Shown: positions 2,094 through 15,659 of the stretch, in pieces
How positions within the stretch are numbered: the first letter of the stretch is position 1
Layout of the letters: every line of letters starts with the position of its first letter
DNA from: Candidatus Jacksonbacteria bacterium RIFCSPLOWO2_02_FULL_44_20
GTDB taxonomy: Bacteria; Patescibacteriota; Patescibacteriia; UBA9629
Direction: 5' to 3'
Length of the DNA stretch: 64,000 nt
NCBI GenBank assembly: GCA_001818155.1
Contig: MHJU01000005.1
Span: 11,805-75,804 of the forward strand
The notes under the pieces: model-generated
Databases searched by the model: none
What the model saw: the letters and a program-made list of their open reading frames with translations, nothing else
What the model was told of the DNA's origin: nothing
Program-made: the position numbers and the translations under genes

Positions 2094-2747
2094 TCATGCT
2101 GTAGTTTTGAGTTTCATTAACACGCGCTTCCAAATCGCTTCAGCTATCTCCTTTTTTCTCTTAATTTTGTTACCTCTATTGCATTTAATGATGCGCCACT
2201 TCTCTTTTCGCGCTAGTTCCAGTCCGTATCGCGCCGCACTTTTTAAGTGTTCGCGATCTTTTTCGTGGATATCTTTTTTCTTTCCTCGTTTTGTAATTAA
2301 AGCATAGGCAAGCGCGTGTGGCAAGGAAAGGTAAAGCACAAGATTTGGCCGCGTGATGTTAAGAACATCGTACTCCATTTTTTCAAGCCAAGATGTAAAC
2401 ACGGCTCTTTGATTGTAAGGGAGCTTGCTTCCCTGATGAATCAAATTTGATGTGGTATAACGGTTTGCAATGATTATTTTTTTCTGCTCCATCCATTTTA
2501 TAAGCGTCGCTTTCATCTCAAACCGATCAAGCGCGTATAAAATAGAAGCAAGATGAGGGTCAACCTCGTTTATTCCGCCGAATTCTCCATTTAAGAAGCG
2601 TCTGACAATCGCGCCGAAAAATGTGCGATCGTACCCTGGAAAATCCAGTTCTGCAACTTTATACCCTTCTTTTTTCAAGCGCTGTACCAGAAGTTTTTGT
2701 TGCGTTGTTTTTCCGGCGCCGTCTATGCCGTCAAGAACTATGAGCAT
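2094..2747 (-). CDS. tmk: thymidylate kinase
   Basis: P-loop MLIVLDGIDGAGKTTQ and overall Tmk-like length and layout. Confidence 0.9.
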   Translation of the reverse strand: MLIVLDGIDGAGKTTQQKLLVQRLKKEGYKVAELDFPGYDRTFFGAIVRRFLNGEFGGINEVDPHLASILYALDRFEMKATLIKWMEQKKIIIANRYTTSNLIHQGSKLPYNQRAVFTSWLEKMEYDVLNITRPNLVLYLSLPHALAYALITKRGKKKDIHEKDREHLKSAARYGLELARKEKWRIIKCNRGNKIKRKKEIAEAIWKRVLMKLKTTA

Positions 2748-2755
2748 AAATATTT

Positions 2756-3196
2756 TTACCCCGTGCTCCCGAATCCCCCTCGTGAATTGGGAGCAATTTC
2801 GTTAACCTCCTCAAATTCCGCAAGAGCGATTTTTACAAGCACTGCTTGAGCGAGTCGCGTGCCGCGCTCTATTGTAACCGGCTTGTCGGTAAAGTTGTAG
2901 AGTTGCAGAATCAATTCATCTTCCGGCCCGCAAAAATCCTGATCTATAATGCCTATGCCTTGTGGTATTGAAAGTCCGTACTTTCGCGGAGTTGAAGATC
3001 TTGGGACAACCATAAACATATATCCTGGCGGTGTTTCAATGATAACGTTTCCAGCAATTCGCGCGATTTCTTTTGGCGCTACTACGGCGTCTTCGCGCGC
3101 ATAAAGATCAAACGCAACCGCGCCTTTTGTCTGATATTCCGGAATCGGCAGAGTTTTATCTATGCGGATAATTTTTACTCGCGTGCGCTCATTCAT
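2756..3196 (-). CDS. dut: dUTP diphosphatase
   Basis: 146 aa with dUTPase motifs (AVAFDLYA, GIIDQDFCG, C-terminal RGGFGSTG). Confidence 0.9.
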   Translation of the reverse strand: MNERTRVKIIRIDKTLPIPEYQTKGAVAFDLYAREDAVVAPKEIARIAGNVIIETPPGYMFMVVPRSSTPRKYGLSIPQGIGIIDQDFCGPEDELILQLYNFTDKPVTIERGTRLAQAVLVKIALAEFEEVNEIAPNSRGGFGSTG

Positions 3197-4281
3197 AGTA
3201 GTGAAGTTAATTCTAAGAGTGTGTCAAATAAAAAGTCCGGGTTTTCCGCCGCTAGTTGCTCTTTGGAATGATAGCCGCTTCCGATGCCCGCCGATCGGAT
3301 GCCCGCCGCTCGCGCCGCACGTATATCGTGTATCGTGTCGCCGCAATACAACGCGTGTTTATTTTGAGTTTGGAAATGGGTTAGAATGTTTTGCAAATCC
3401 GTTTCTTTATTGCGCGATCCGCCGCGGATATGGGTTATGTATTGGTCAATGCCATACTCCTGCGCTTCTCGTTCTACAAATTTTTCTGGATGGCTTGAGA
3501 GTATCGCGATTTTTTTGTCGTTTGCTGTAAGTTGTCCAAAGACACTAGGCGCGTCAGCGTATATGGTTGGCTTGTTACCGTTTTTCACCGCTTCGTTGAA
3601 GTATTTCCTGAAGAGCTTTAGTAGTAAGTCCGCATCTTCGCTGATGTCGTTTTTGCGGTAGTATTCTAGGGCAGTCATCGTCGCGCTTTTCAAAAATTCA
3701 TCAAATACAGGCATTATTTTGCCGAATTGTTTAAGCACGCGCGCGGTCGTCTCGTATACAGGTTTTCTGTCGTCCGAGATCACCCCGCTCCAGTCAAAGA
3801 TAAAGAGATTGATGGGTGCTTGATACCATCGTTTACCACTCAACACTCCCCTCTCTTGAAACATCTCTCTAGCTCTTTTCACTAGATATATTTTTGTGAT
3901 TCCAGCAGAGCGCACTTTGTCCCAGCAGGATTCGCACGCCCACCAGTGTCCGAATATATACATTTCTCCGTTTTCGGTATCAACCCCGGCAAGCCGAGCG
4001 TTTCGGAGAGCATCCGCTTCGGTGTGATTTTCTTCTATGCACTCTGGGCACAGATTGTAGCCAATGCCGGAAGGGATATTTTGGATCGCGCGAGGACAAG
4101 GAGATGAAACCCGATCTCTCGCATTATGTCCGCGCGCAATTACCGTCTCTTTGTTTACGATCACTGCTCCGATTTGCCGTGATCCGCATCCTGATTTGTA
4201 CGCTTCTGCCCGCGCTTCTTGCATGAATGGGTGGGATGCTGGAGCATACTCATATTTATTATTATGTTTCAAGGTTTCCAT
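3193..4281 (-). CDS. fusion protein: dCMP deaminase (ComEB-like, N-terminal) + HAD-superfamily phosphatase (C-terminal, YjjG-like nucleotidase?)
   Basis: N-terminal half has the cytidine/deoxycytidylate deaminase zinc motifs (HTEADAL ... ACESC). C-terminal half has HAD motifs (FDWSGVISDD motif I, GDTIHDIRAARAAG motif IV). Confidence 0.8.
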   Translation of the reverse strand: METLKHNNKYEYAPASHPFMQEARAEAYKSGCGSRQIGAVIVNKETVIARGHNARDRVSSPCPRAIQNIPSGIGYNLCPECIEENHTEADALRNARLAGVDTENGEMYIFGHWWACESCWDKVRSAGITKIYLVKRAREMFQERGVLSGKRWYQAPINLFIFDWSGVISDDRKPVYETTARVLKQFGKIMPVFDEFLKSATMTALEYYRKNDISEDADLLLKLFRKYFNEAVKNGNKPTIYADAPSVFGQLTANDKKIAILSSHPEKFVEREAQEYGIDQYITHIRGGSRNKETDLQNILTHFQTQNKHALYCGDTIHDIRAARAAGIRSAGIGSGYHSKEQLAAENPDFLFDTLLELTSLL

Positions 4282-4930
4282 ATTTTTCTTTTAACTCTTC
4301 TAACTTTCCCTCCCGAATCAGCCGTATCTCATCCACGTTGTCCGAGCGCGCCTCCAAACTGTATGGAGTAGAGGCTGTATATTTTGCGTCCGCAACACCG
4401 TGTTTTCTGGTTTCTTCAGGAGGCACAGGGCTTGAAAGCGTATGAATGACAAGCTGGCAAATCCTCTCGCCAGGGTACAACCGGATAATCTGTCCGTTTG
4501 TGTTATTTACAATCGGGATCATCAGATACCCCGAGTACCCGACATCAATAATGCCGCTTTCAATGATGAGCCCTCGGCGGATGATTGTGCTACGCGCGTA
4601 CATCACAGCCATGAGCTTGTCTGATTTGATTGCGATTTTTTCGTACGTTGAGGCGATCACAAATTCAGACGGCAAAATCTCAAGATATTGCCCGGGCTTT
4701 ATATTTAAAAGTTTGAAATTCTCTTTTTTGTTTTCGTAATCCATATAATCCACAGTAAGGGCAACGCGCCCTTTTTCGTTATACTCGGAGTTTTTGGAAA
4801 TATAAAACATTGTTCCGAGCCGCAGATCAATGGAATTCGGCTGAACTTGATACTGGTCAAGCCGCGGCGTAAAGGAGAGATGTCCTTCGCGAATTGCTTT
4901 GACGATGTCGGTTTTTGAAAGAGTGGACAT
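4262..4930 (-). CDS. dcd: dCTP deaminase family protein
   Basis: RLDQYQVQPNSIDLRLG ... ARSTIIRRGLIIESGIIDVGYSGYLMIPIVN ... ADAKY pattern matches Dcd. Confidence 0.8.
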   Translation of the reverse strand: MSTLSKTDIVKAIREGHLSFTPRLDQYQVQPNSIDLRLGTMFYISKNSEYNEKGRVALTVDYMDYENKKENFKLLNIKPGQYLEILPSEFVIASTYEKIAIKSDKLMAVMYARSTIIRRGLIIESGIIDVGYSGYLMIPIVNNTNGQIIRLYPGERICQLVIHTLSSPVPPEETRKHGVADAKYTASTPYSLEARSDNVDEIRLIREGKLEELKEKYGNLET

Positions 4931-4969: not shown

Positions 4970-5803
4970 TTACAGCACAATTTTTAATCCTTTAAGCGCA
5001 GGCATTGGAGCATAGCGCGATTCAAACTGTCCTGTAATTTCTGAAACAAGCGTTTCGTCGCCCTGTTCAGCGCGGTCAAAGTAGTCGGGTTGAGCCGTAA
5101 AGTAGATGGGGCCGTGATCGTTTGTGCGATTAATAAGCTCCCATGCTGTGTCATAGTGAATGTCGTAAATGTGGGCGTTTGAGATAGAATGCGTAAGTTT
5201 TCCAGTGGCTACTCCGAGCTTTCCGGCAAGAATGCACAAAAGCAGATAAAATCCGGCAACGTCGTGCGGACAGCCGAGAATCATGTCGTTGCTCCGCACG
5301 ATATTGTGAATGTGCAGTTTGTTGTTAATGATATTTGCAGTAAACGTGTACGGGCAAGGGACGTTTTTTTTAGTCGTGCCGCTTTCCCCAAGTCCGTCGT
5401 CTCCCGGATCCCACGTTACAACAACAGCGTGGCGCGAGCCGGGATTTTCTTTAAGATGCGTAATAAGCTCGCCCAACTGATCCCTGCCGAAGTGATGTCG
5501 CCAGCGGTATCCGTAGGCGGCCGTGACAGTACCGTCTTTTTCAGTAAAATCTTTCCAGATGTTGGTAAATTTGTTGACAAAATCATCAGGGTTGCGGCTT
5601 CCTGTTATAAACCATATCATTTCAGCAACAAAAAGAGTAATGGGAATTTTCCGGAGCGTCAAGAGCGGGTAGCCGTAGTCAAGTTCAAAGTTTACACCCG
5701 GCAATACTTTGAGCCTATGCCCCGTCCGCTCGTTATATTCGTCCGAGCCTGTGTTCATTATGCGACGCAGGATTTCCTGATATTGACGGTCAAATTGGGT
5801 CAT
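4970..5803 (-). CDS. ThyA-family pyrimidine-nucleotide C5 methyltransferase homolog with Asp at the Asn177(E. coli)/Asn229(L. casei) discriminator position (possible dCMP-acting enzyme; see findings)
   Basis: Motifs conserved: ERTGHR, YPLLTLRK, AEMIWF, AAYGYRWR, ENPGSRH, catalytic VPC(167)PY, RSNDMILGCPHD(198)VAGFYLL, AHIY, and a ThyA-like C-terminus. The ORF track starts at 5854; the probable start is Met18 (MTQFDRQYQEIL) at 5803. Confidence 0.85.
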   Translation of the reverse strand: MTQFDRQYQEILRRIMNTGSDEYNERTGHRLKVLPGVNFELDYGYPLLTLRKIPITLFVAEMIWFITGSRNPDDFVNKFTNIWKDFTEKDGTVTAAYGYRWRHHFGRDQLGELITHLKENPGSRHAVVVTWDPGDDGLGESGTTKKNVPCPYTFTANIINNKLHIHNIVRSNDMILGCPHDVAGFYLLLCILAGKLGVATGKLTHSISNAHIYDIHYDTAWELINRTNDHGPIYFTAQPDYFDRAEQGDETLVSEITGQFESRYAPMPALKGLKIVL

Positions 5804-5814
5804 TTTTGATTTTT

Positions 5815-6303
5815 TTAGCCTTGATACACTATCTTGCCGTTTGATTTTGCCCATTCTTCGGAAAAACCAACGTGCGATATCACGTTACTGCTTCTATCAA
5901 GCTGACGTTCGGTTTCTTTCAATAGAATACCGGGCTGAATTTCATAAATGACCTTAATTTTCAATGGATTTGCCTTGTAAAATATCGCCAAGTAAATCAT
6001 CTTATTACGAGTTATACGATACAAAGATTCAGCCCTTTTGTCTGTCGGCGACTTAAACATTCGGTCCAGTTGCCCGGTTCCTCCTTCGTAACAAGATAGA
6101 TATTCGTACTTCATTGACGGGTCGTTTTTATCACGAGCGTCCGCATCTCTTTTTGAAGCTATCAATTCGTGTCCAAGAGTTTCTGAAATTATCATCTCTT
6201 TAACTAACCCGGGTTGCAAAATGTTAGGAATACCGATACTTAATGCTAACTCCTGCGCTTTAACCACAAGCTCAATGATTCTAGAAATTATTTTTTGCAC
6301 CAT
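5815..6303 (-). CDS. putative Type II restriction endonuclease (small, PvuII-like?)
   Basis: 162-aa ORF immediately downstream of a DNA methyltransferase and co-oriented with it. It is AT-rich like the MTase. Weak resemblance to PvuII REase (LSIGIPNILQPGLVKEMIISETLG; D..KYEYLS region) recalled from memory only. Confidence 0.45.
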   Translation of the reverse strand: MVQKIISRIIELVVKAQELALSIGIPNILQPGLVKEMIISETLGHELIASKRDADARDKNDPSMKYEYLSCYEGGTGQLDRMFKSPTDKRAESLYRITRNKMIYLAIFYKANPLKIKVIYEIQPGILLKETERQLDRSSNVISHVGFSEEWAKSNGKIVYQG

Positions 6304-6305
6304 AT

Positions 6306-7100
6306 TTATACAAATAGTTTACTCTCTTGTTTTAATTTGATTTCTTTTATCCTTTTATTGCAGATTTCAACAAAAGCAGAGTTAATTTCAAATCCTATAA
6401 AATTTCGTTTTAGTTCTTTGCAAACCGCAAATGTGGTTCCAACTCCGGCAAATGGATCTAATACCAAATCTCCTTCATTAGAACTGGCTTTTACAATTCT
6501 TTCTATCAGCTTAATTGGCTTTTGTATAGTATTCAAAAGTTCCCTGCTTATTAATTCTTTGGATTTGTATGTAAGTTGTTTAATGTCGCCCCACACGTCG
6601 CCGGGATTCTTGCCGTTGCCGTTAAATTTCGTTTTGTGAAATTTACCATTCATAACCGACGGCACATTTTCACATCTTTTTCTATGCTCCAACTCAACCA
6701 ACTGCGGGACGCGGATATGGTTTAAGTTAAATACTTTAGTAGTTTTTCCTTTAGTGAAGTAGGCGATTATATCATAGTTATTTGTATAGTTAGTTCTTCC
6801 TTGGGCCAGTCTGCTTGGCTGATACCATACAATTTTCGCATTTAAGTTCAGATATGGGCGATAATCAATAAAGTCAATACAATCAGGTTTCCCGAATAGA
6901 TATAACGAGCCGCCTTTCTTTAATATCCTTGAGAATAATTTTATTAGATTTAAATTATATTCCTGTATATTTTTTATTTTATCCCAATCGTTTTCAGTTA
7001 CTCCGAACGGGCCATCGCATACGATTAAATTTATTGATTCGTCATCAATTTGTTTTATGAGTTCAAAACAGTCGCCTTGATAAACTTTGTTTATTTTCAT
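6306..7100 (-). CDS. DNA methyltransferase, beta-class amino-MTase (N4-cytosine or N6-adenine)
   Basis: Motif IV-like LIVCDGPFG near the N-terminus and AdoMet motif I VLDPFAGVGTTFAV near the C-terminus, i.e. beta-group order. About 31% GC versus about 45-50% in flanking genes. Confidence 0.8.
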   Translation of the reverse strand: MKINKVYQGDCFELIKQIDDESINLIVCDGPFGVTENDWDKIKNIQEYNLNLIKLFSRILKKGGSLYLFGKPDCIDFIDYRPYLNLNAKIVWYQPSRLAQGRTNYTNNYDIIAYFTKGKTTKVFNLNHIRVPQLVELEHRKRCENVPSVMNGKFHKTKFNGNGKNPGDVWGDIKQLTYKSKELISRELLNTIQKPIKLIERIVKASSNEGDLVLDPFAGVGTTFAVCKELKRNFIGFEINSAFVEICNKRIKEIKLKQESKLFV

Positions 7101-7106
7101 CTTTTT

Positions 7107-7625
7107 CTATAGCACTTTATATTTCACCAGCACCTCGTCATCTCCCAACCGTTTAACCTCGGTGAGTTTCAGCGTTTCGGCATTCAGTTCAACATCATTG
7201 CCAAATATACTTACTCCGCGGCCGAAAATTTTTGGCGCTATCGTGAAATATAGTTCGTCAACTAGTTTCTCGCGGAGAAAGAGCGCATAAATTTCCGCGC
7301 CTCCTCCGATAACCGCTCGTTTGAAACCGCGCTCGCTTAATTCTTTTAAAATACCGCGCGGCGCGGTATTTTTGAACTCCAAAACATTCGGGACTTCGCG
7401 CTCTTTGTAAAGATGCGGACTTCGCGTCATAACAAGAGTGAGGCGATTTTTGAGCGGTTTCGGGAGCGCCTGATAAGTATGCGATCCGACAATCACAACC
7501 CCGGCTTTTTCGGTTTGCTCCTTAAAAAAGCGCTTGTCAGCGCTTGATGTCCAATCTACATTGTGGAGAGCGTGTTTTGCTATTTTTCCGTCAAGAGTTA
7601 TAGCGGCTATCAGTATTGTTTGCAT
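7107..7625 (-). CDS. dihydrofolate reductase family protein (RibD C-terminal-domain type)
   Basis: MQTILIAAITLDGKIA ... VIGGGAEIY pattern typical of RibD_C/DHFR-like reductases. Sits in the position thyA-folA would occupy. Confidence 0.7.
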   Translation of the reverse strand: MQTILIAAITLDGKIAKHALHNVDWTSSADKRFFKEQTEKAGVVIVGSHTYQALPKPLKNRLTLVMTRSPHLYKEREVPNVLEFKNTAPRGILKELSERGFKRAVIGGGAEIYALFLREKLVDELYFTIAPKIFGRGVSIFGNDVELNAETLKLTEVKRLGDDEVLVKYKVL

Positions 7626-7836
7626 ATAGATAAATGGCGCGCGCTTGGCGTACTTGCAGAGTATATTTCAATACGGCTTTAATTTGATCTTTAGTTATCC
7701 GCAATGTTTGCGCGATTTCTTCAATCGTCGCGCCATCGGCAAGTTTATCAATGACGATATCAGTTGTTACATAGGTGCCTTTTATCGTCGGTTTTCCAGT
7801 TTGTTCGTCAGTGATAATTTCGTTTAATGATTGCAT
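7591..7836 (-). CDS. DUF433-like small HTH protein
   Basis: 81 aa with GKPTIKGTYVTTDIVIDKLADGATIEEIAQ, resembling the DUF433 consensus (GKPCIRGTRIPV..L..G.S.EEI). Overlaps the DHFR-like start by 35 nt. Confidence 0.55.
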   Translation of the reverse strand: MQSLNEIITDEQTGKPTIKGTYVTTDIVIDKLADGATIEEIAQTLRITKDQIKAVLKYTLQVRQARAIYLYANNTDSRYNS

Positions 7837-13394: not shown

Positions 13395-15659
13395 TTATGA
13401 CTTTTTTGTCTGTGATGAGCGAAACATCGCATCTGATAGAAGAAGATACCCGATTCCGAGCGGATGATTTAGAAACGGCGTGAAAAAGTGGACAACGACA
13501 AGCGCGATGATACCGGCTGTTAATCCGATGGACATATTCCATCCGCGTTTAACAATATCAAAAATCAGCGCGAGATAGGCAATCATCCCAAGAAAGCCAA
13601 GTTTATACCACACATCCAGCCAGCCCCATTCAAACGCAAATGTAGTGTAGTAGGGGTTGTTTGGATGCGCGGCAAGATAGCGCGGGTCAGTTGTTTTATA
13701 CGTAACAGTTGCGCCAAACCCGGAGCCAAGGAGCGAGTGGCGTTGTATCGCTTCTTTTAGCGGTGAAAGCAGAGCTTTGCGGCTCCGGACTGCCGATTCT
13801 TCAGTTTCTGTCGCCCGATCCGGCAGTGATGCAATCGCTTTGAGCCCTGGAATTTTTCCGATCGGAATAATAAGTATGACAGCAATTAAAGTTACGCTTG
13901 TTATAAGGCATAGCGCAAGAATGAAAGCACGATGCAAAGTTTTCTTAATCAGTGCGTGAAAATGGGTTAGATATAGATATGTAAACCATATAAACCCTAT
14001 AACTCCGCCAACCCAGAATGATCGCGAGAGATTAACAAGTAGTATTGTGATTATTGCGACGCATAGAAGCCAAATTTTCACGGCGTCCTTTTTTTCTTGT
14101 TTGTTTTCTAGAAAATGCGCTATGAAGACAAAAAAACCGGTAAGCGCCCATATCCCGCTTTGCATAAATACGCGATAAAAATTGTATTTATACAAACCAA
14201 CCTCAATGATGCGCTGATCGCGGAACCAGCCGTATACCGGAACCAGCATTCGCCAGAAAATATCAATATGGCTGTAGAAAAAAAGCAGGAGCGTTACCGC
14301 GATGAATTGCCACACAAGCGCCGCGGCCCAGATGGTGAATAAAAAAGTAGTTTGTAGCTTATTTTTGAAAGCCGTTATGAATACAGGAAGAAGCAGAAAA
14401 AAGAGATAGCCGTTGAAATCTTGATAGAGAAATGAGCGGTTATTATGAGAGAGAAACGCATTTATAATTCCCCATGCAATAACTAATCCAAATACAATAT
14501 AGAATTTATAATTCTTCAACAATAATTTGACATTTGGTATCTTTAATGCCCAAACACCGAGTAAAACAGAAAACAATCCAATCCTAAGAGAAAGCCGGAA
14601 CCCGCTGACATATACATCAAACAAGTGTCCTTGCGAAGAGATCATAAGTTCCGCAAGGAGGATATAGACGCCCCATAAAAGATGCCGCCATGCGATAAGC
14701 GCGGCAGACGCGAGAATTAAAATAAAACCTAACCAATTTACGATCGGAGATGAAAACGCAAAAAATGAGAGGAGATTTATAGATGCGATAATGAAGAGAG
14801 TTTTAGAAAATAGCGATCTGTTGAACATCATTATCAGCGATATTAGAACAGCAAGCCAACTTGCAAGCGTAATTACACAGTATGCAATTATTGAGTTGTG
14901 CTTTTTGAAATAGTTGCGCAAACTGCGATTCCACATTTCCTGTTTTGCAAAAGGCATTACTTGTTTGAAACTTTGTCCGTAATGATGGATTACGTTTGCT
15001 AGAGGAGCATACCATATTTCATAACCCCGATCTCGCGCGCGGAGGCAAAAGTCAACCTCTTCAAACCAGTTCCAAAAATTGCGTTCGTCGAGCTCGCCAA
15101 GATTTTCAATCACAGAACGTCGTATCATAAAAAACGCGCCCATTACCTGATCAACTTTGGATTCTTTTCTGTAATCAAAATCATGCGCCAAGTAACTGGA
15201 CAGAAGTTTTGGGAATAAATGATGCAGTTTCAGAAGAATAATGGTCTGATCAAGGAGCCGAGGGAAACGCCGCACCGAATTTTGATGTGAGAGATCGGTG
15301 TTTAATAAGTGACACCCTGCAATGCCGCATTCTCTCTTTTCGTCCATCCACTTTGTCATCAGCGAAAGAGCATCGTTTGTAAGTTCAGTATCCGGATTTA
15401 GGAGAAGCACATATCTTCCGCCCGCCCTTTTAATTCCTTGATTATTCGCGCCGGCAAATCCGCGATTCACGACGTTTGCAATACAGGTAAGGCCTGGAAA
15501 TTCAAGCCGTATCATCTCTACAGCGCCGTCATGCGATCCGTTGTCAATAACAAAAATCTCGAAGGAGATCCCTCGAGTGTGTTTGTAAATGGACTGCAGG
15601 CATTTTTGCAACAAATCGCGAGTGTTCCAACTGACGATGATGATTGATACATCCATCAT
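13395..15659 (-). CDS. GT2 glycosyltransferase fused to a large polytopic membrane domain (polysaccharide synthase/polymerase-like)
   Basis: N-terminus MMDVSIIIVSWNTRDLL ... VIDNGSHDG (GT2) followed by more than 10 predicted TM helices. Probable start 15659 just after the gyrB stop. Confidence 0.65.
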   Translation of the reverse strand: MMDVSIIIVSWNTRDLLQKCLQSIYKHTRGISFEIFVIDNGSHDGAVEMIRLEFPGLTCIANVVNRGFAGANNQGIKRAGGRYVLLLNPDTELTNDALSLMTKWMDEKRECGIAGCHLLNTDLSHQNSVRRFPRLLDQTIILLKLHHLFPKLLSSYLAHDFDYRKESKVDQVMGAFFMIRRSVIENLGELDERNFWNWFEEVDFCLRARDRGYEIWYAPLANVIHHYGQSFKQVMPFAKQEMWNRSLRNYFKKHNSIIAYCVITLASWLAVLISLIMMFNRSLFSKTLFIIASINLLSFFAFSSPIVNWLGFILILASAALIAWRHLLWGVYILLAELMISSQGHLFDVYVSGFRLSLRIGLFSVLLGVWALKIPNVKLLLKNYKFYIVFGLVIAWGIINAFLSHNNRSFLYQDFNGYLFFLLLPVFITAFKNKLQTTFLFTIWAAALVWQFIAVTLLLFFYSHIDIFWRMLVPVYGWFRDQRIIEVGLYKYNFYRVFMQSGIWALTGFFVFIAHFLENKQEKKDAVKIWLLCVAIITILLVNLSRSFWVGGVIGFIWFTYLYLTHFHALIKKTLHRAFILALCLITSVTLIAVILIIPIGKIPGLKAIASLPDRATETEESAVRSRKALLSPLKEAIQRHSLLGSGFGATVTYKTTDPRYLAAHPNNPYYTTFAFEWGWLDVWYKLGFLGMIAYLALIFDIVKRGWNMSIGLTAGIIALVVVHFFTPFLNHPLGIGYLLLSDAMFRSSQTKKS

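Follow-up and report, generated by a model that had tools for sequence, protein, structure and literature searches.

A pyrimidine-deoxynucleotide operon in the window

The window, i.e., the whole 64,000-nucleotide stretch of Candidatus Jacksonbacteria DNA that was analyzed, contains a tight pyrimidine-deoxynucleotide operon. It encodes dihydrofolate reductase (DHFR), a ThyA-family enzyme (TS) with Asp at the position of E. coli ThyA Asn177, a dCTP-deaminase-like (DCD-like) protein, a dCMP-deaminase homolog, dUTPase (Dut) and thymidylate kinase (Tmk). The genes lie on one strand, spaced -35 to 39 nt apart, the dut and tmk genes following the others. Scanning for promoters and terminators gave counts at chance level.

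The DHFR gene (7107..7625, minus strand; 172 residues, DHFR_1 / RibD_C) is separated from the TS gene by a two-gene insert (5815..7100, minus strand). The insert comprises an N6/N4 DNA methyltransferase recognized by Pfam (6306..7100) and a 162-residue ORF (5815..6303) that matched no Pfam family and is a candidate restriction enzyme. None of the 29 related loci has the cassette, and its GC content (0.34-0.39) is lower than that of the genes on either side (0.45-0.48); a role for this restriction-modification pair in the pathway was ruled out on these grounds. In the closest relative (L007) the DHFR gene abuts the TS gene directly, and it lies near TS in 12 of the 29 loci. Across the same Patescibacteria loci, the deaminase gene was observed adjoining TS in 25, and the DCD-like gene was present in 20. 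Some related operons, such as that of locus L040, have an extra small kinase gene between the deaminase and Tmk genes.

The TS gene had been described preliminarily as an ORF at 4970..5854. That ORF (minus strand, 294 codons, with an upstream ATG at 5854) is real, but the homologs are 276-278 residues long and its 17 upstream codons overlap the preceding ORF. The true start is therefore probably the ATG at 5803, which would give a protein of 277 residues (4970..5803, minus strand). From its Pfam match, alignments, homolog length and AlphaFold2 model, this protein is predicted to be an Xp12-type dCMP C5-methyltransferase.

The adjoining gene (4262..4930, minus strand) encodes the DCD-like protein of 222 residues, a predicted dCTP (or dUTP) pyrophosphatase by Pfam, NCBIfam and PDB alignments. 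It matches the fold of E. coli Dcd and of the bifunctional DCD-DUT enzymes of M. tuberculosis and B. halodurans (TIGR02274, 113 bits), and R110, S111, R115 and D128 are conserved, as is the Gln of the bifunctional enzymes. The catalytic Glu (E138 in E. coli, E129 in M. tuberculosis), however, is replaced by Pro139 (codon 4516..4514) in alignments with the structures of M. tuberculosis DCD-DUT and E. coli Dcd E138A. Pro occupies this position in 119 of 119 homologs, 117 of which have the bifunctional DCD-DUT/dUTPase-type Gln. Because the catalytic Glu is Pro throughout the family, deamination by this protein is not expected; nor is a second dUTPase needed, since a true dUTPase is encoded two genes away. 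The activity of the DCD-like protein is inferred.

The deaminase gene (3193..4281, minus strand) encodes a protein of 362 residues in which a dCMP-deaminase-family domain (residues 1-150, with 'HTE' and 'CESC' motifs; PF00383) is joined to a HAD phosphatase domain (HAD_2). This fusion distantly matches the dCMP deaminase of S. mutans (2hvv) and is predicted to act on 5-methyl-dCMP and/or dCMP, the substrate being inferred. The CPR deaminases, which have a 'GHWWCC' motif and a Cys-rich insert, did not resemble the phage deaminases found beside Xp12-type TS, a result that lends no support either way. The operon is completed by a canonical trimeric dUTPase of 146 residues (2756..3196, minus strand; PF00692, 1.3e-22), in which all five dUTPase motifs are apparently present as judged by eye rather than by computation, and by a Tmk of 217 residues (2094..2747, minus strand; PF02223, 8e-25).

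The active site of the ThyA-family enzyme

The preliminary description had recognized a ThyA-family protein with the catalytic Cys, Glu58, Tyr94 and a ThyA-like C-terminus, and this was upheld by the Pfam profile search (PF00303, E=3.4e-50), the alignments and the AlphaFold2 model (pLDDT 91.3, pTM 0.92). The best PDB matches of the model found by Foldseek were thymidylate synthases (TM ~0.8), and the N229D mutant with dCMP (1njc) was among the structural matches. The residues C167, E78, the Tyr94-equivalent Tyr and D190 are present for C146, Glu58, Tyr94 and Asp169, and the C-terminus is the conserved '...KIVL'. By MAFFT alignment, E58, Y94, R21, R126, R166, S167, D169, H207 and Y209 (E. coli numbering) are retained. 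The phosphate-binding Arg residues had been described as kept; this holds for R21, R126 and R166, but the fourth, R127, is His142.

The assignment of Asp198 (codon GAC, 5263..5261, minus strand; Asp181 in 277-residue numbering) to the Asn177 position was borne out. In the HMMER alignment to solved ThyA structures, the query 'RSNDMILGCPHDVAG' aligns to 'RSADVFLGVPFNIAS', placing D198 opposite the Asn of E. coli (N177) and L. casei (N229), and MAFFT alignments with E. coli ThyA gave the same placement: the residue is Asp, not Asn. The reported Pro in place of His147, the His of the PCH motif, was likewise found, as P168 beside the catalytic C167. These two residues belong to the motif N164-V-P-C167-P168 (5351..5365, minus strand), which is identical to the Xp12 'NVPCP' and has Asn at the position of Leu143 and C167 at that of Cys146. 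In a 45-sequence alignment, D181, N147, P149, C150 and P151 (277-residue numbering) are invariant columns. An alignment artefact was ruled out, as the two programs agree and the motif is invariant.

Asp at the Asn177 position is accompanied in the Asp-type family by four other active-site changes, W83F, L143N, H147P and Q165V/I. With Pro at His147, Val at Gln165 and Phe at Trp83, the window TS lacks these residues of the canonical active-site network. Among the residues within 6 Å of C5, as listed in PMC13326640, it matches Xp12 TS at 10 of 12 positions and E. coli ThyA at 6 of 12. Its overall identity is 36% to Xp12 TS (E=2e-45) and 27% to E. coli ThyA.

ThyA mutants N177D and N229D methylate dCMP (cited in PMC13326640), and in MetaGPA the N177 and H147 positions were the two most strongly associated with cytosine-modified DNA (PMC8670742). 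Xp12 TS and five of seven further Asp-type homologs yielded 5mdC in E. coli (bioRxiv 10.1101/2024.12.05.627091). The characterized natural Asp-type members that were found, T4 gp42, Xp12 TS, RB69 gp48 and MilA, all act on cytosine nucleotides (PMC13326640; bioRxiv 10.1101/2024.12.05.627091). The earlier suggestion of a dCMP-acting methylase or hydroxymethylase is supported by the comparative evidence: the co-varying residues, the 10/12 match to Xp12 TS and the Asp-type clade point to a cytosine-type enzyme, its substrate preference being inferred, and hydroxymethylation is disfavored.

Distribution and phylogeny of Asp-type proteins

Asp at the Asn177 position was observed in 120 of 120 closest homologs, in 29 of 29 related Patescibacteria genome loci and in 119 of 120 Saccharimonadales homologs. 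An identical protein is encoded on 23 independent metagenome contigs, and conservation within the family is high; sequencing error and a pseudogene were ruled out on this basis. On sequence evidence, then, Asp198 is a family trait and not a one-off, a chance event or an error. Here and in hundreds of related genomes, what is annotated as a thymidylate synthase gene encodes an active site like that of a phage dCMP methylase. A chromosomal gene of this kind had been thought unusual; that is so in comparison with other bacteria, but across Patescibacteria it is the norm.

Of 143 representatives, 124 are Asp-type, with W83F, a residue other than His at 147 and, in most cases, a hydrophobic one at 165, and 18 are Asn-type, all of which keep W83, H147 and Q/M165. 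A phylogeny, which the preliminary description had proposed as a check, placed the window TS inside the Asp-type clade. In this neighbor-joining analysis the Asp-type proteins form one clade (95/100 bootstrap) with every Asn-type ThyA outside it, and the CPR proteins form their own clade (89/100) apart from the Xp12-type phage homologs. The deeper branches of the Asp-type clade are not resolved; a clean split into a CPR side and a phage side appeared in one tree only and had 0/100 bootstrap support. That the window TS came from a phage or prophage was rejected, as its gene is flanked by ribosomal, replication and translation genes and IMG/VR contained no close relative, with no match above 32% identity.

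Neither the window nor 36 related loci yielded a ThyX or a second ThyA; this is weak evidence, as about 20 kb per genome was searched, with a ThyX query sequence that may be inexact. Because coverage was limited to some 20 kb on the gene's surroundings, a thyX or Asn-type thyA elsewhere in these genomes is not excluded, and that the operon provides their sole thymidylate route is an inference.

Methylation before deamination as a possible route to thymidylate

As the reading that best explains the data, a dUMP-independent route, dCTP to dCMP to 5-methyl-dCMP to dTMP, is proposed, in which the 'thyA' fixed in the chromosomes of Patescibacteria encodes an Xp12-type methylase. No CPR member has been characterized enzymatically, and we regard the proposal as one that could prove right or wrong with equal ease. 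The Glu-less DCD-like protein would hydrolyze dCTP to dCMP. The Asp-type TS would use Cys167, with Asp198 protonating and pairing with cytosine N3/N4, and would transfer and reduce the methylene group of CH2-THF, giving 5-methyl-dCMP and dihydrofolate, from which DHFR would regenerate THF. The dCMP-deaminase homolog would then convert 5-methyl-dCMP to dTMP, which Tmk would take onward. The net chemistry would be that of the classical route, but with methylation before deamination, so that dUMP would not be an intermediate and the separate dUTPase would only sanitize dUTP. Deaminases adjoining Asp-type phage TS have been proposed to make dT from 5mdC (bioRxiv 10.1101/2024.12.05.627091). Identity to Xp12 TS of only 36% weighs against the proposal, as does the lack of evidence that CPR deaminases accept 5-methyl-dCMP.

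The order of the steps is not settled by gene context, because dCMP deaminase, dUTPase, TS, DHFR and Tmk are exactly the set of the classical dUMP route. The window TS could methylate dUMP despite its Asp, or have dual specificity, with the deaminase converting dCMP to dUMP, the dUTPase converting dUTP to dUMP and TS forming dTMP. We think this unlikely, but several points favor it: the operon encodes every enzyme it needs, a true dUTPase and Tmk among them; the protein retains the complete TS catalytic apparatus and C-terminus; conservation of the gene across the superphylum is of the kind expected for an essential gene; and residual or dual activity on dUMP is possible, since pairing of a protonated Asp with uracil is feasible in principle. 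The NCBIfam TS equivalog TIGR03284 was also passed, though narrowly (117.7 vs a cutoff of 108.35 bits), while the other seven of the eight TS equivalog cutoffs were failed by wide margins. Against a dUMP-methylating enzyme, the characterized natural Asp-type members that were found act on cytosine nucleotides, the window TS carries the full cytosine-type signature rather than Asp alone, and all 18 Asn-type sequences fall outside its clade.

If dCMP is the substrate, its product need not be destined for dTMP. The 5-methyl-dCMP could instead be phosphorylated and incorporated, with genomic 5mC replacing much or all C as in Xp12 and the DCD-like pyrophosphatase depleting dCTP. The enzyme set does match that of phages with full replacement of C by 5mC, and some related operons have the extra small kinase noted above. 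The window operon, however, ends in Tmk without an additional dNMP kinase, and a promiscuous T4 dNMP kinase was needed in E. coli for 5mdC to enter DNA (bioRxiv 10.1101/2024.12.05.627091). The adjoining deaminase would also drain 5-methyl-dCMP to dTMP, and no report of 5mC-substituted CPR DNA was found in the literature searched. We consider this fate improbable; given a Tmk and a deaminase in the operon, 5-methyl-dCMP is more likely an intermediate to dTMP than a precursor for DNA modification. That Patescibacteria build their DNA with nucleotide-level 5-methyl-dCTP, 5mC replacing much or all cytosine genome-wide, is in our judgment highly improbable. To our knowledge, such genome-wide replacement has been documented in no more than a few phages. 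The enzyme might otherwise be a dCMP hydroxymethylase like T4 gp42, or a 5-hydroxy-dCMP synthase, supplying a precursor for hypermodified cytosine; both share Asp at the Asn177 position with the window TS. T4-type hydroxymethylases lack the closing C-terminal tail and are acidic at the residue corresponding to E. coli position 143, and 5-hydroxy-dCMP synthases of the RB69 gp48 type have Asn in place of Asp169 (PMC13326640). The window TS fits neither rule: Asn164 stands at 143, the tail ending in '...KIVL' is present, and Asp190 retains Asp169. As there is also no glycosyltransferase or hypermodification gene nearby, and DHFR is linked, this reading is scarcely to be credited. Reductive methylation is expected instead, because Asn at 143 is as in Xp12, neither D169 nor the C-terminal tail has been lost and the operon includes DHFR; a methylase is thus favored over a hydroxymethylase, as far as residues and gene context can tell.

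Thymidylate synthesis from dUMP via ThyA or ThyX is, as far as we know, treated as universal in cellular life. Should the Patescibacteria enzyme methylate dCMP, much of the bacterial tree would form dTMP by methylating first and deaminating afterwards, a route that had been proposed only for phages containing 5mC. The annotations 'thymidylate synthase' and 'dCTP deaminase', and the metabolic reconstructions of these organisms, would in that case misstate the mechanism. Such an enzyme would also be relevant to the origin of phage cytosine-modification modules, and biotechnology could gain new folate-dependent dCMP methylases and perhaps deaminases that accept 5mC. The question is raised whether CPR DNA carries nucleotide-level 5mC; if it did so genome-wide, scavenging episymbionts might be able to tell their own DNA from that of the host. 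No earlier description of the CPR case was found in the literature searched, which largely excluded subscription journals.

Among known systems, canonical ThyA (E. coli, L. casei) shares with the window TS its fold, catalytic Cys, Glu58, Tyr94, Asp169, His207 and Tyr209, and is a CH2-THF-dependent reductive methylase, as is inferred for the window TS; the two differ in N177D, H147P, Q165V, W83F, L143N and R127H. T4 gp42 releases THF rather than DHF. It has the ThyA-family fold, catalytic Cys and Asp at the Asn177 position in common with the window TS, but has Asp at 143 and no C-terminal tail, and identity is only 21%. The closest phage matches are the Xp12-type enzymes (those of Xp12 and of PaMx74-, Mallos- and Achromobacter-phages), which share the fold, Asp177, Pro147, Asn143, Phe83, a hydrophobic residue at 165, the motifs 'NVPCP' and 'AYGYRWRxHFGRDQL' and the ThyA-like C-terminus, yet are only 35-38% identical. 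Their modules run PRA-PH pyrophosphohydrolase-TS(Asp)-deaminase-DHFR, and among the representatives Asp-type TS is also fused to a deaminase (P0134) or to PRA-PH (P0181). A deaminase, DHFR and a dNTP pyrophosphatase are thus common to both settings, but the pyrophosphatase is a Glu-less DCD-like protein in the window and of PRA-PH/MazG type in the phages, and the deaminase subfamilies differ. Unlike the phage genes, the window TS gene is chromosomal in cellular organisms. Its operon also includes dUTPase and Tmk, which the phage module does not, and a supply of dTMP is therefore indicated rather than DNA modification.

Active site and distribution of the Asp-type enzyme

The ThyA-family open reading frame at 4970..5854 (minus strand, 294 aa; Pfam PF00303, E=3.4e-50), termed TS(Asp), had been picked out in the preliminary description for an Asp in place of the Asn that discriminates uracil from cytosine. 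That placement held: HMMER aligned RSNDMILGCPHDVAG of the query opposite RSADVFLGVPFNIAS of solved thymidylate synthases, MAFFT alignments against E. coli ThyA (from MG1655) agreed, and the position of E. coli Asn177 is Asp198 in the query (codon GAC at 5263..5261). The catalytic nucleophile (Cys167) and the replacement of the neighbouring His147 by Pro168 were also borne out, but the phosphate-binding Arg residues are not all kept, as Arg127 is His142. The open reading frame is real, but probably starts at 5803 rather than 5854: because homologues have 276-278 aa and begin at the query's second Met, and the ORF ahead of it overlaps the first 17 codons, the gene is most likely 4970..5803 (277 aa). 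An AlphaFold2 model was confident (pLDDT 91.3, pTM 0.92), and its best PDB matches were thymidylate synthases (TM ~0.8), among them 1njc, the L. casei N229D-dCMP complex.

Judged by alignment, the aspartate is a family trait. The motif P-H-D-(V/I)-A is present in all 120 closest database homologues, annotated as Uhr-, Kuenen-, Falkow- and Doudnabacteria, Parcubacteria or ‘Patescibacteria group’, and in 29/29 related loci of reference genomes; when a second search was run from a Saccharimonadales homologue, 119 of 120 matches had Asp. A protein identical to TS(Asp) was called on 23 independent metagenome contigs. The window's dCTP-deaminase-like (DCD-like) protein matches one of Candidatus Jacksonbacteria RIFOXYA2_FULL_44_7 at 100% identity, and the window therefore belongs to Patescibacteria (CPR).

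The active-site survey covered 143 representatives drawn from an exhaustive HMMER search. Asp177 was found in 124; in nearly all of these W83 is Phe, position 147 is a residue other than His (mostly Pro), Gln165 is replaced by mostly hydrophobic residues, and Asp205 is His, Asn or Asp. Another 18 had Asn177 and retained Trp, His, Gln/Met and Asp at 83, 147, 165 and 205; the remaining one, with His, was a poorly aligned fragment. Of the 12 residues within 6 Å of the substrate C5 (Nucleic Acids Res 2026, PMC13326640), the query shares 10 with the dCMP methylase of Xanthomonas phage Xp12, differing conservatively at the other two, and six with E. coli ThyA. N-V-P-C-P surrounds the nucleophile in both query and Xp12 enzyme. 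Overall identity is 36% to the Xp12 enzyme (E=2e-45), 35-38% to its homologues from PaMx74, Mallos, Achromobacter and Rhodobacter phages, 27% to E. coli ThyA and 21% to T4 gp42, and the top matches in the phage collection were Xp12/PaMx74/Steinhofvirus-type phages. The Asp is thus accompanied in the query by what, from these residues, is a whole cytosine-type active site.

The alignment with ThyA and T4 gp42 and the phylogeny called for in the preliminary description placed the query in an Asp-type clade that excludes every Asn-type sequence (neighbour-joining, 95/100 bootstrap). Inside this clade the Patescibacteria proteins group together (89/100); its deeper branching was unresolved. One 263-aa protein (P0269) departs from the canonical signature (W83, H147, Met at 165, D205) only in having Asp at 177 (‘PFDIAH’); it is a natural single-site N177D on an Asn-type background and lies outside the clade.

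The gene block and its nucleotide enzymes

TS(Asp) lies within a tightly packed block on the minus strand (gaps of -35 to 39 nt) in which it is preceded by DHFR (7107..7625), whose start is overlapped by 35 nt by a same-strand 81-aa DUF433 ORF (7591..7836). TS(Asp) is followed by genes for the DCD-like protein (4262..4930), a dCMP-deaminase/HAD fusion (3193..4281), a canonical dUTPase (2756..3196) and thymidylate kinase (Tmk, 2094..2747). As had been described, the setting is chromosomal and housekeeping (RRF, DNA pol III delta', GatB, L21, RecR, DnaB). Neighbours of the TS gene in the 29 related loci were a deaminase homologue (25), a DCD-like gene (20) and DHFR (12). Between DHFR and TS(Asp), at 5815..7100 (minus strand), stand genes for an N6/N4 DNA methyltransferase of 264 aa and for a 162-aa protein that matched no Pfam or NCBIfam family and may be a restriction enzyme. 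This cassette looks like a recent insertion, since its GC (0.34-0.39) is below that of neighbouring genes and neither gene was found in any of the 29 related loci. Neither ThyX nor a further ThyA turned up in the window or across 36 loci, which is only weak evidence of absence, as ~20 kb of each genome was covered rather than the whole. One related Patescibacteria operon (L040) has a 183-aa AAA_18-type small kinase (13865..14416, plus strand) between its deaminase and thymidylate kinase genes. This may be a dNMP kinase, and as such would be relevant to phosphorylation of 5-methyl-dCMP.

The DCD-like protein exceeds the cutoff of the NCBIfam ‘dCTP deaminase’ model (TIGR02274) and is so labelled in public records. 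However, deamination is not expected, because Pro139 takes the place of the catalytic Glu (E. coli E138, M. tuberculosis E129), with Pro in 119/119 homologues from across Patescibacteria (P0394-P0513); the annotation of this family is likely wrong. The Gln of bifunctional DCD-dUTPases is kept in 117 of the 119, whereas monofunctional E. coli Dcd has Ala. Triphosphate hydrolysis is a plausible inference, although the activity is unknown; a second dUTPase seems unnecessary, as a complete one is encoded two genes away.

The CPR deaminases beside the TS gene (loci L007-L035) are marked by a zinc motif, ‘GHWWCCxPCW’, and an insert rich in Cys (C..R....PSG.GY.LC.GC); they differ from S. mutans dCMP deaminase as well as from the phage deaminases adjoining Xp12-type TS. 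By these motifs they form a distinctive subfamily, of unknown substrate. Among related loci the C-terminal HAD phosphatase domain recurs only in the closest relative (L007); its role is unexplained, a nucleotidase being one thought.

Substrate, reaction and the fate of the product

ThyA N177D and N229D mutants become dCMP methylases, as cited in PMC13326640, and a metagenomic study relating genotype to phenotype found 177 and 147 to be the two residues most strongly tied to cytosine modification of DNA (eLife 2021, PMC8670742). The Xp12 enzyme and 5/7 other Asp-type homologues made 5mdC in E. coli (bioRxiv 10.1101/2024.12.05.627091). The hedged proposal of a dCMP-acting enzyme is supported and sharpened by the residue signature, the clade and the likeness to Xp12. 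dCMP is probably the preferred substrate, an inference without an enzyme assay for any Patescibacteria member. Continued use of dUMP, alone or with dCMP, is unlikely but a real possibility: the operon is an exact fit to the classical pathway as well, and an Asp in its protonated form could pair with uracil, but all characterised natural Asp-type members found act on cytosine nucleotides and the query carries the full cytosine-type signature. As to the reaction, left between methylation and hydroxymethylation in the preliminary description, hydroxymethyl products are correlated with an acidic residue at 143 and 5-hydroxy products with Asn at 169 (PMC13326640). The query has Asn at 143, in common with Xp12 TS, Asp at 169, and a conserved ThyA-like C-terminus, absent from T4 gp42, all of which argues for a reductive methylase; these features and the DHFR linkage leave a hydroxymethylase or hydroxylase very improbable.

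For its product, deaminase homologues encoded beside Asp-type TS have been proposed to yield dT from methylated cytosine nucleotide (bioRxiv 10.1101/2024.12.05.627091). The DCD-like protein would convert dCTP to dCMP as a pyrophosphatase, TS(Asp) would methylate dCMP to 5-methyl-dCMP with dihydrofolate recycled by DHFR, the deaminase would form dTMP, and Tmk would yield dTDP. The stoichiometry would be that of the classical route with methylation and deamination swapped, so that dUMP is bypassed. This is the mechanism judged most likely, though as a whole chain it is evenly poised between right and wrong, and no Patescibacteria member has been assayed. CPR DHFR genes have been shown to complement an E. 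coli folA deletion (PMC11974145), which fits with their having a genuine dihydrofolate-producing partner. Synthesis of 5-methyl-dCTP for incorporation into DNA is improbable though not excluded; some related operons do have an additional small kinase, but no supporting evidence was found. dTMP supply is favoured over DNA modification, because the window's operon contains Tmk and no additional dNMP kinase.

Relation to phage systems

No earlier description of TS(Asp) in Patescibacteria was found in the literature searched, of which coverage was incomplete; one paper treats their thyA as ordinary (PMC12455944). The Asp-type enzyme is already known from phages. What is new is that it has become fixed as the chromosomal ‘thyA’ across a bacterial superphylum and is paired with a DCD-like protein lacking the catalytic Glu, together with an implied, unassayed, dUMP-independent thymidylate route in cells. 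Natural Asp-type fusions join the TS to an N-terminal dCMP deaminase (P0134, 433 aa) or a PRA-PH/MazG-type pyrophosphohydrolase (P0181, 424 aa); in another protein (P0170) an HNH endonuclease domain precedes the TS domain. Phages Xp12, Mallos, PA_LZ02, 83-24 and RcRudolph encode a PRA-PH-type pyrophosphohydrolase, TS(Asp), dCMP deaminase and DHFR, the same functional module as the Patescibacteria operon, in which the DCD-like protein would fill the PRA-PH slot if it is a dCTP-to-dCMP pyrophosphatase.
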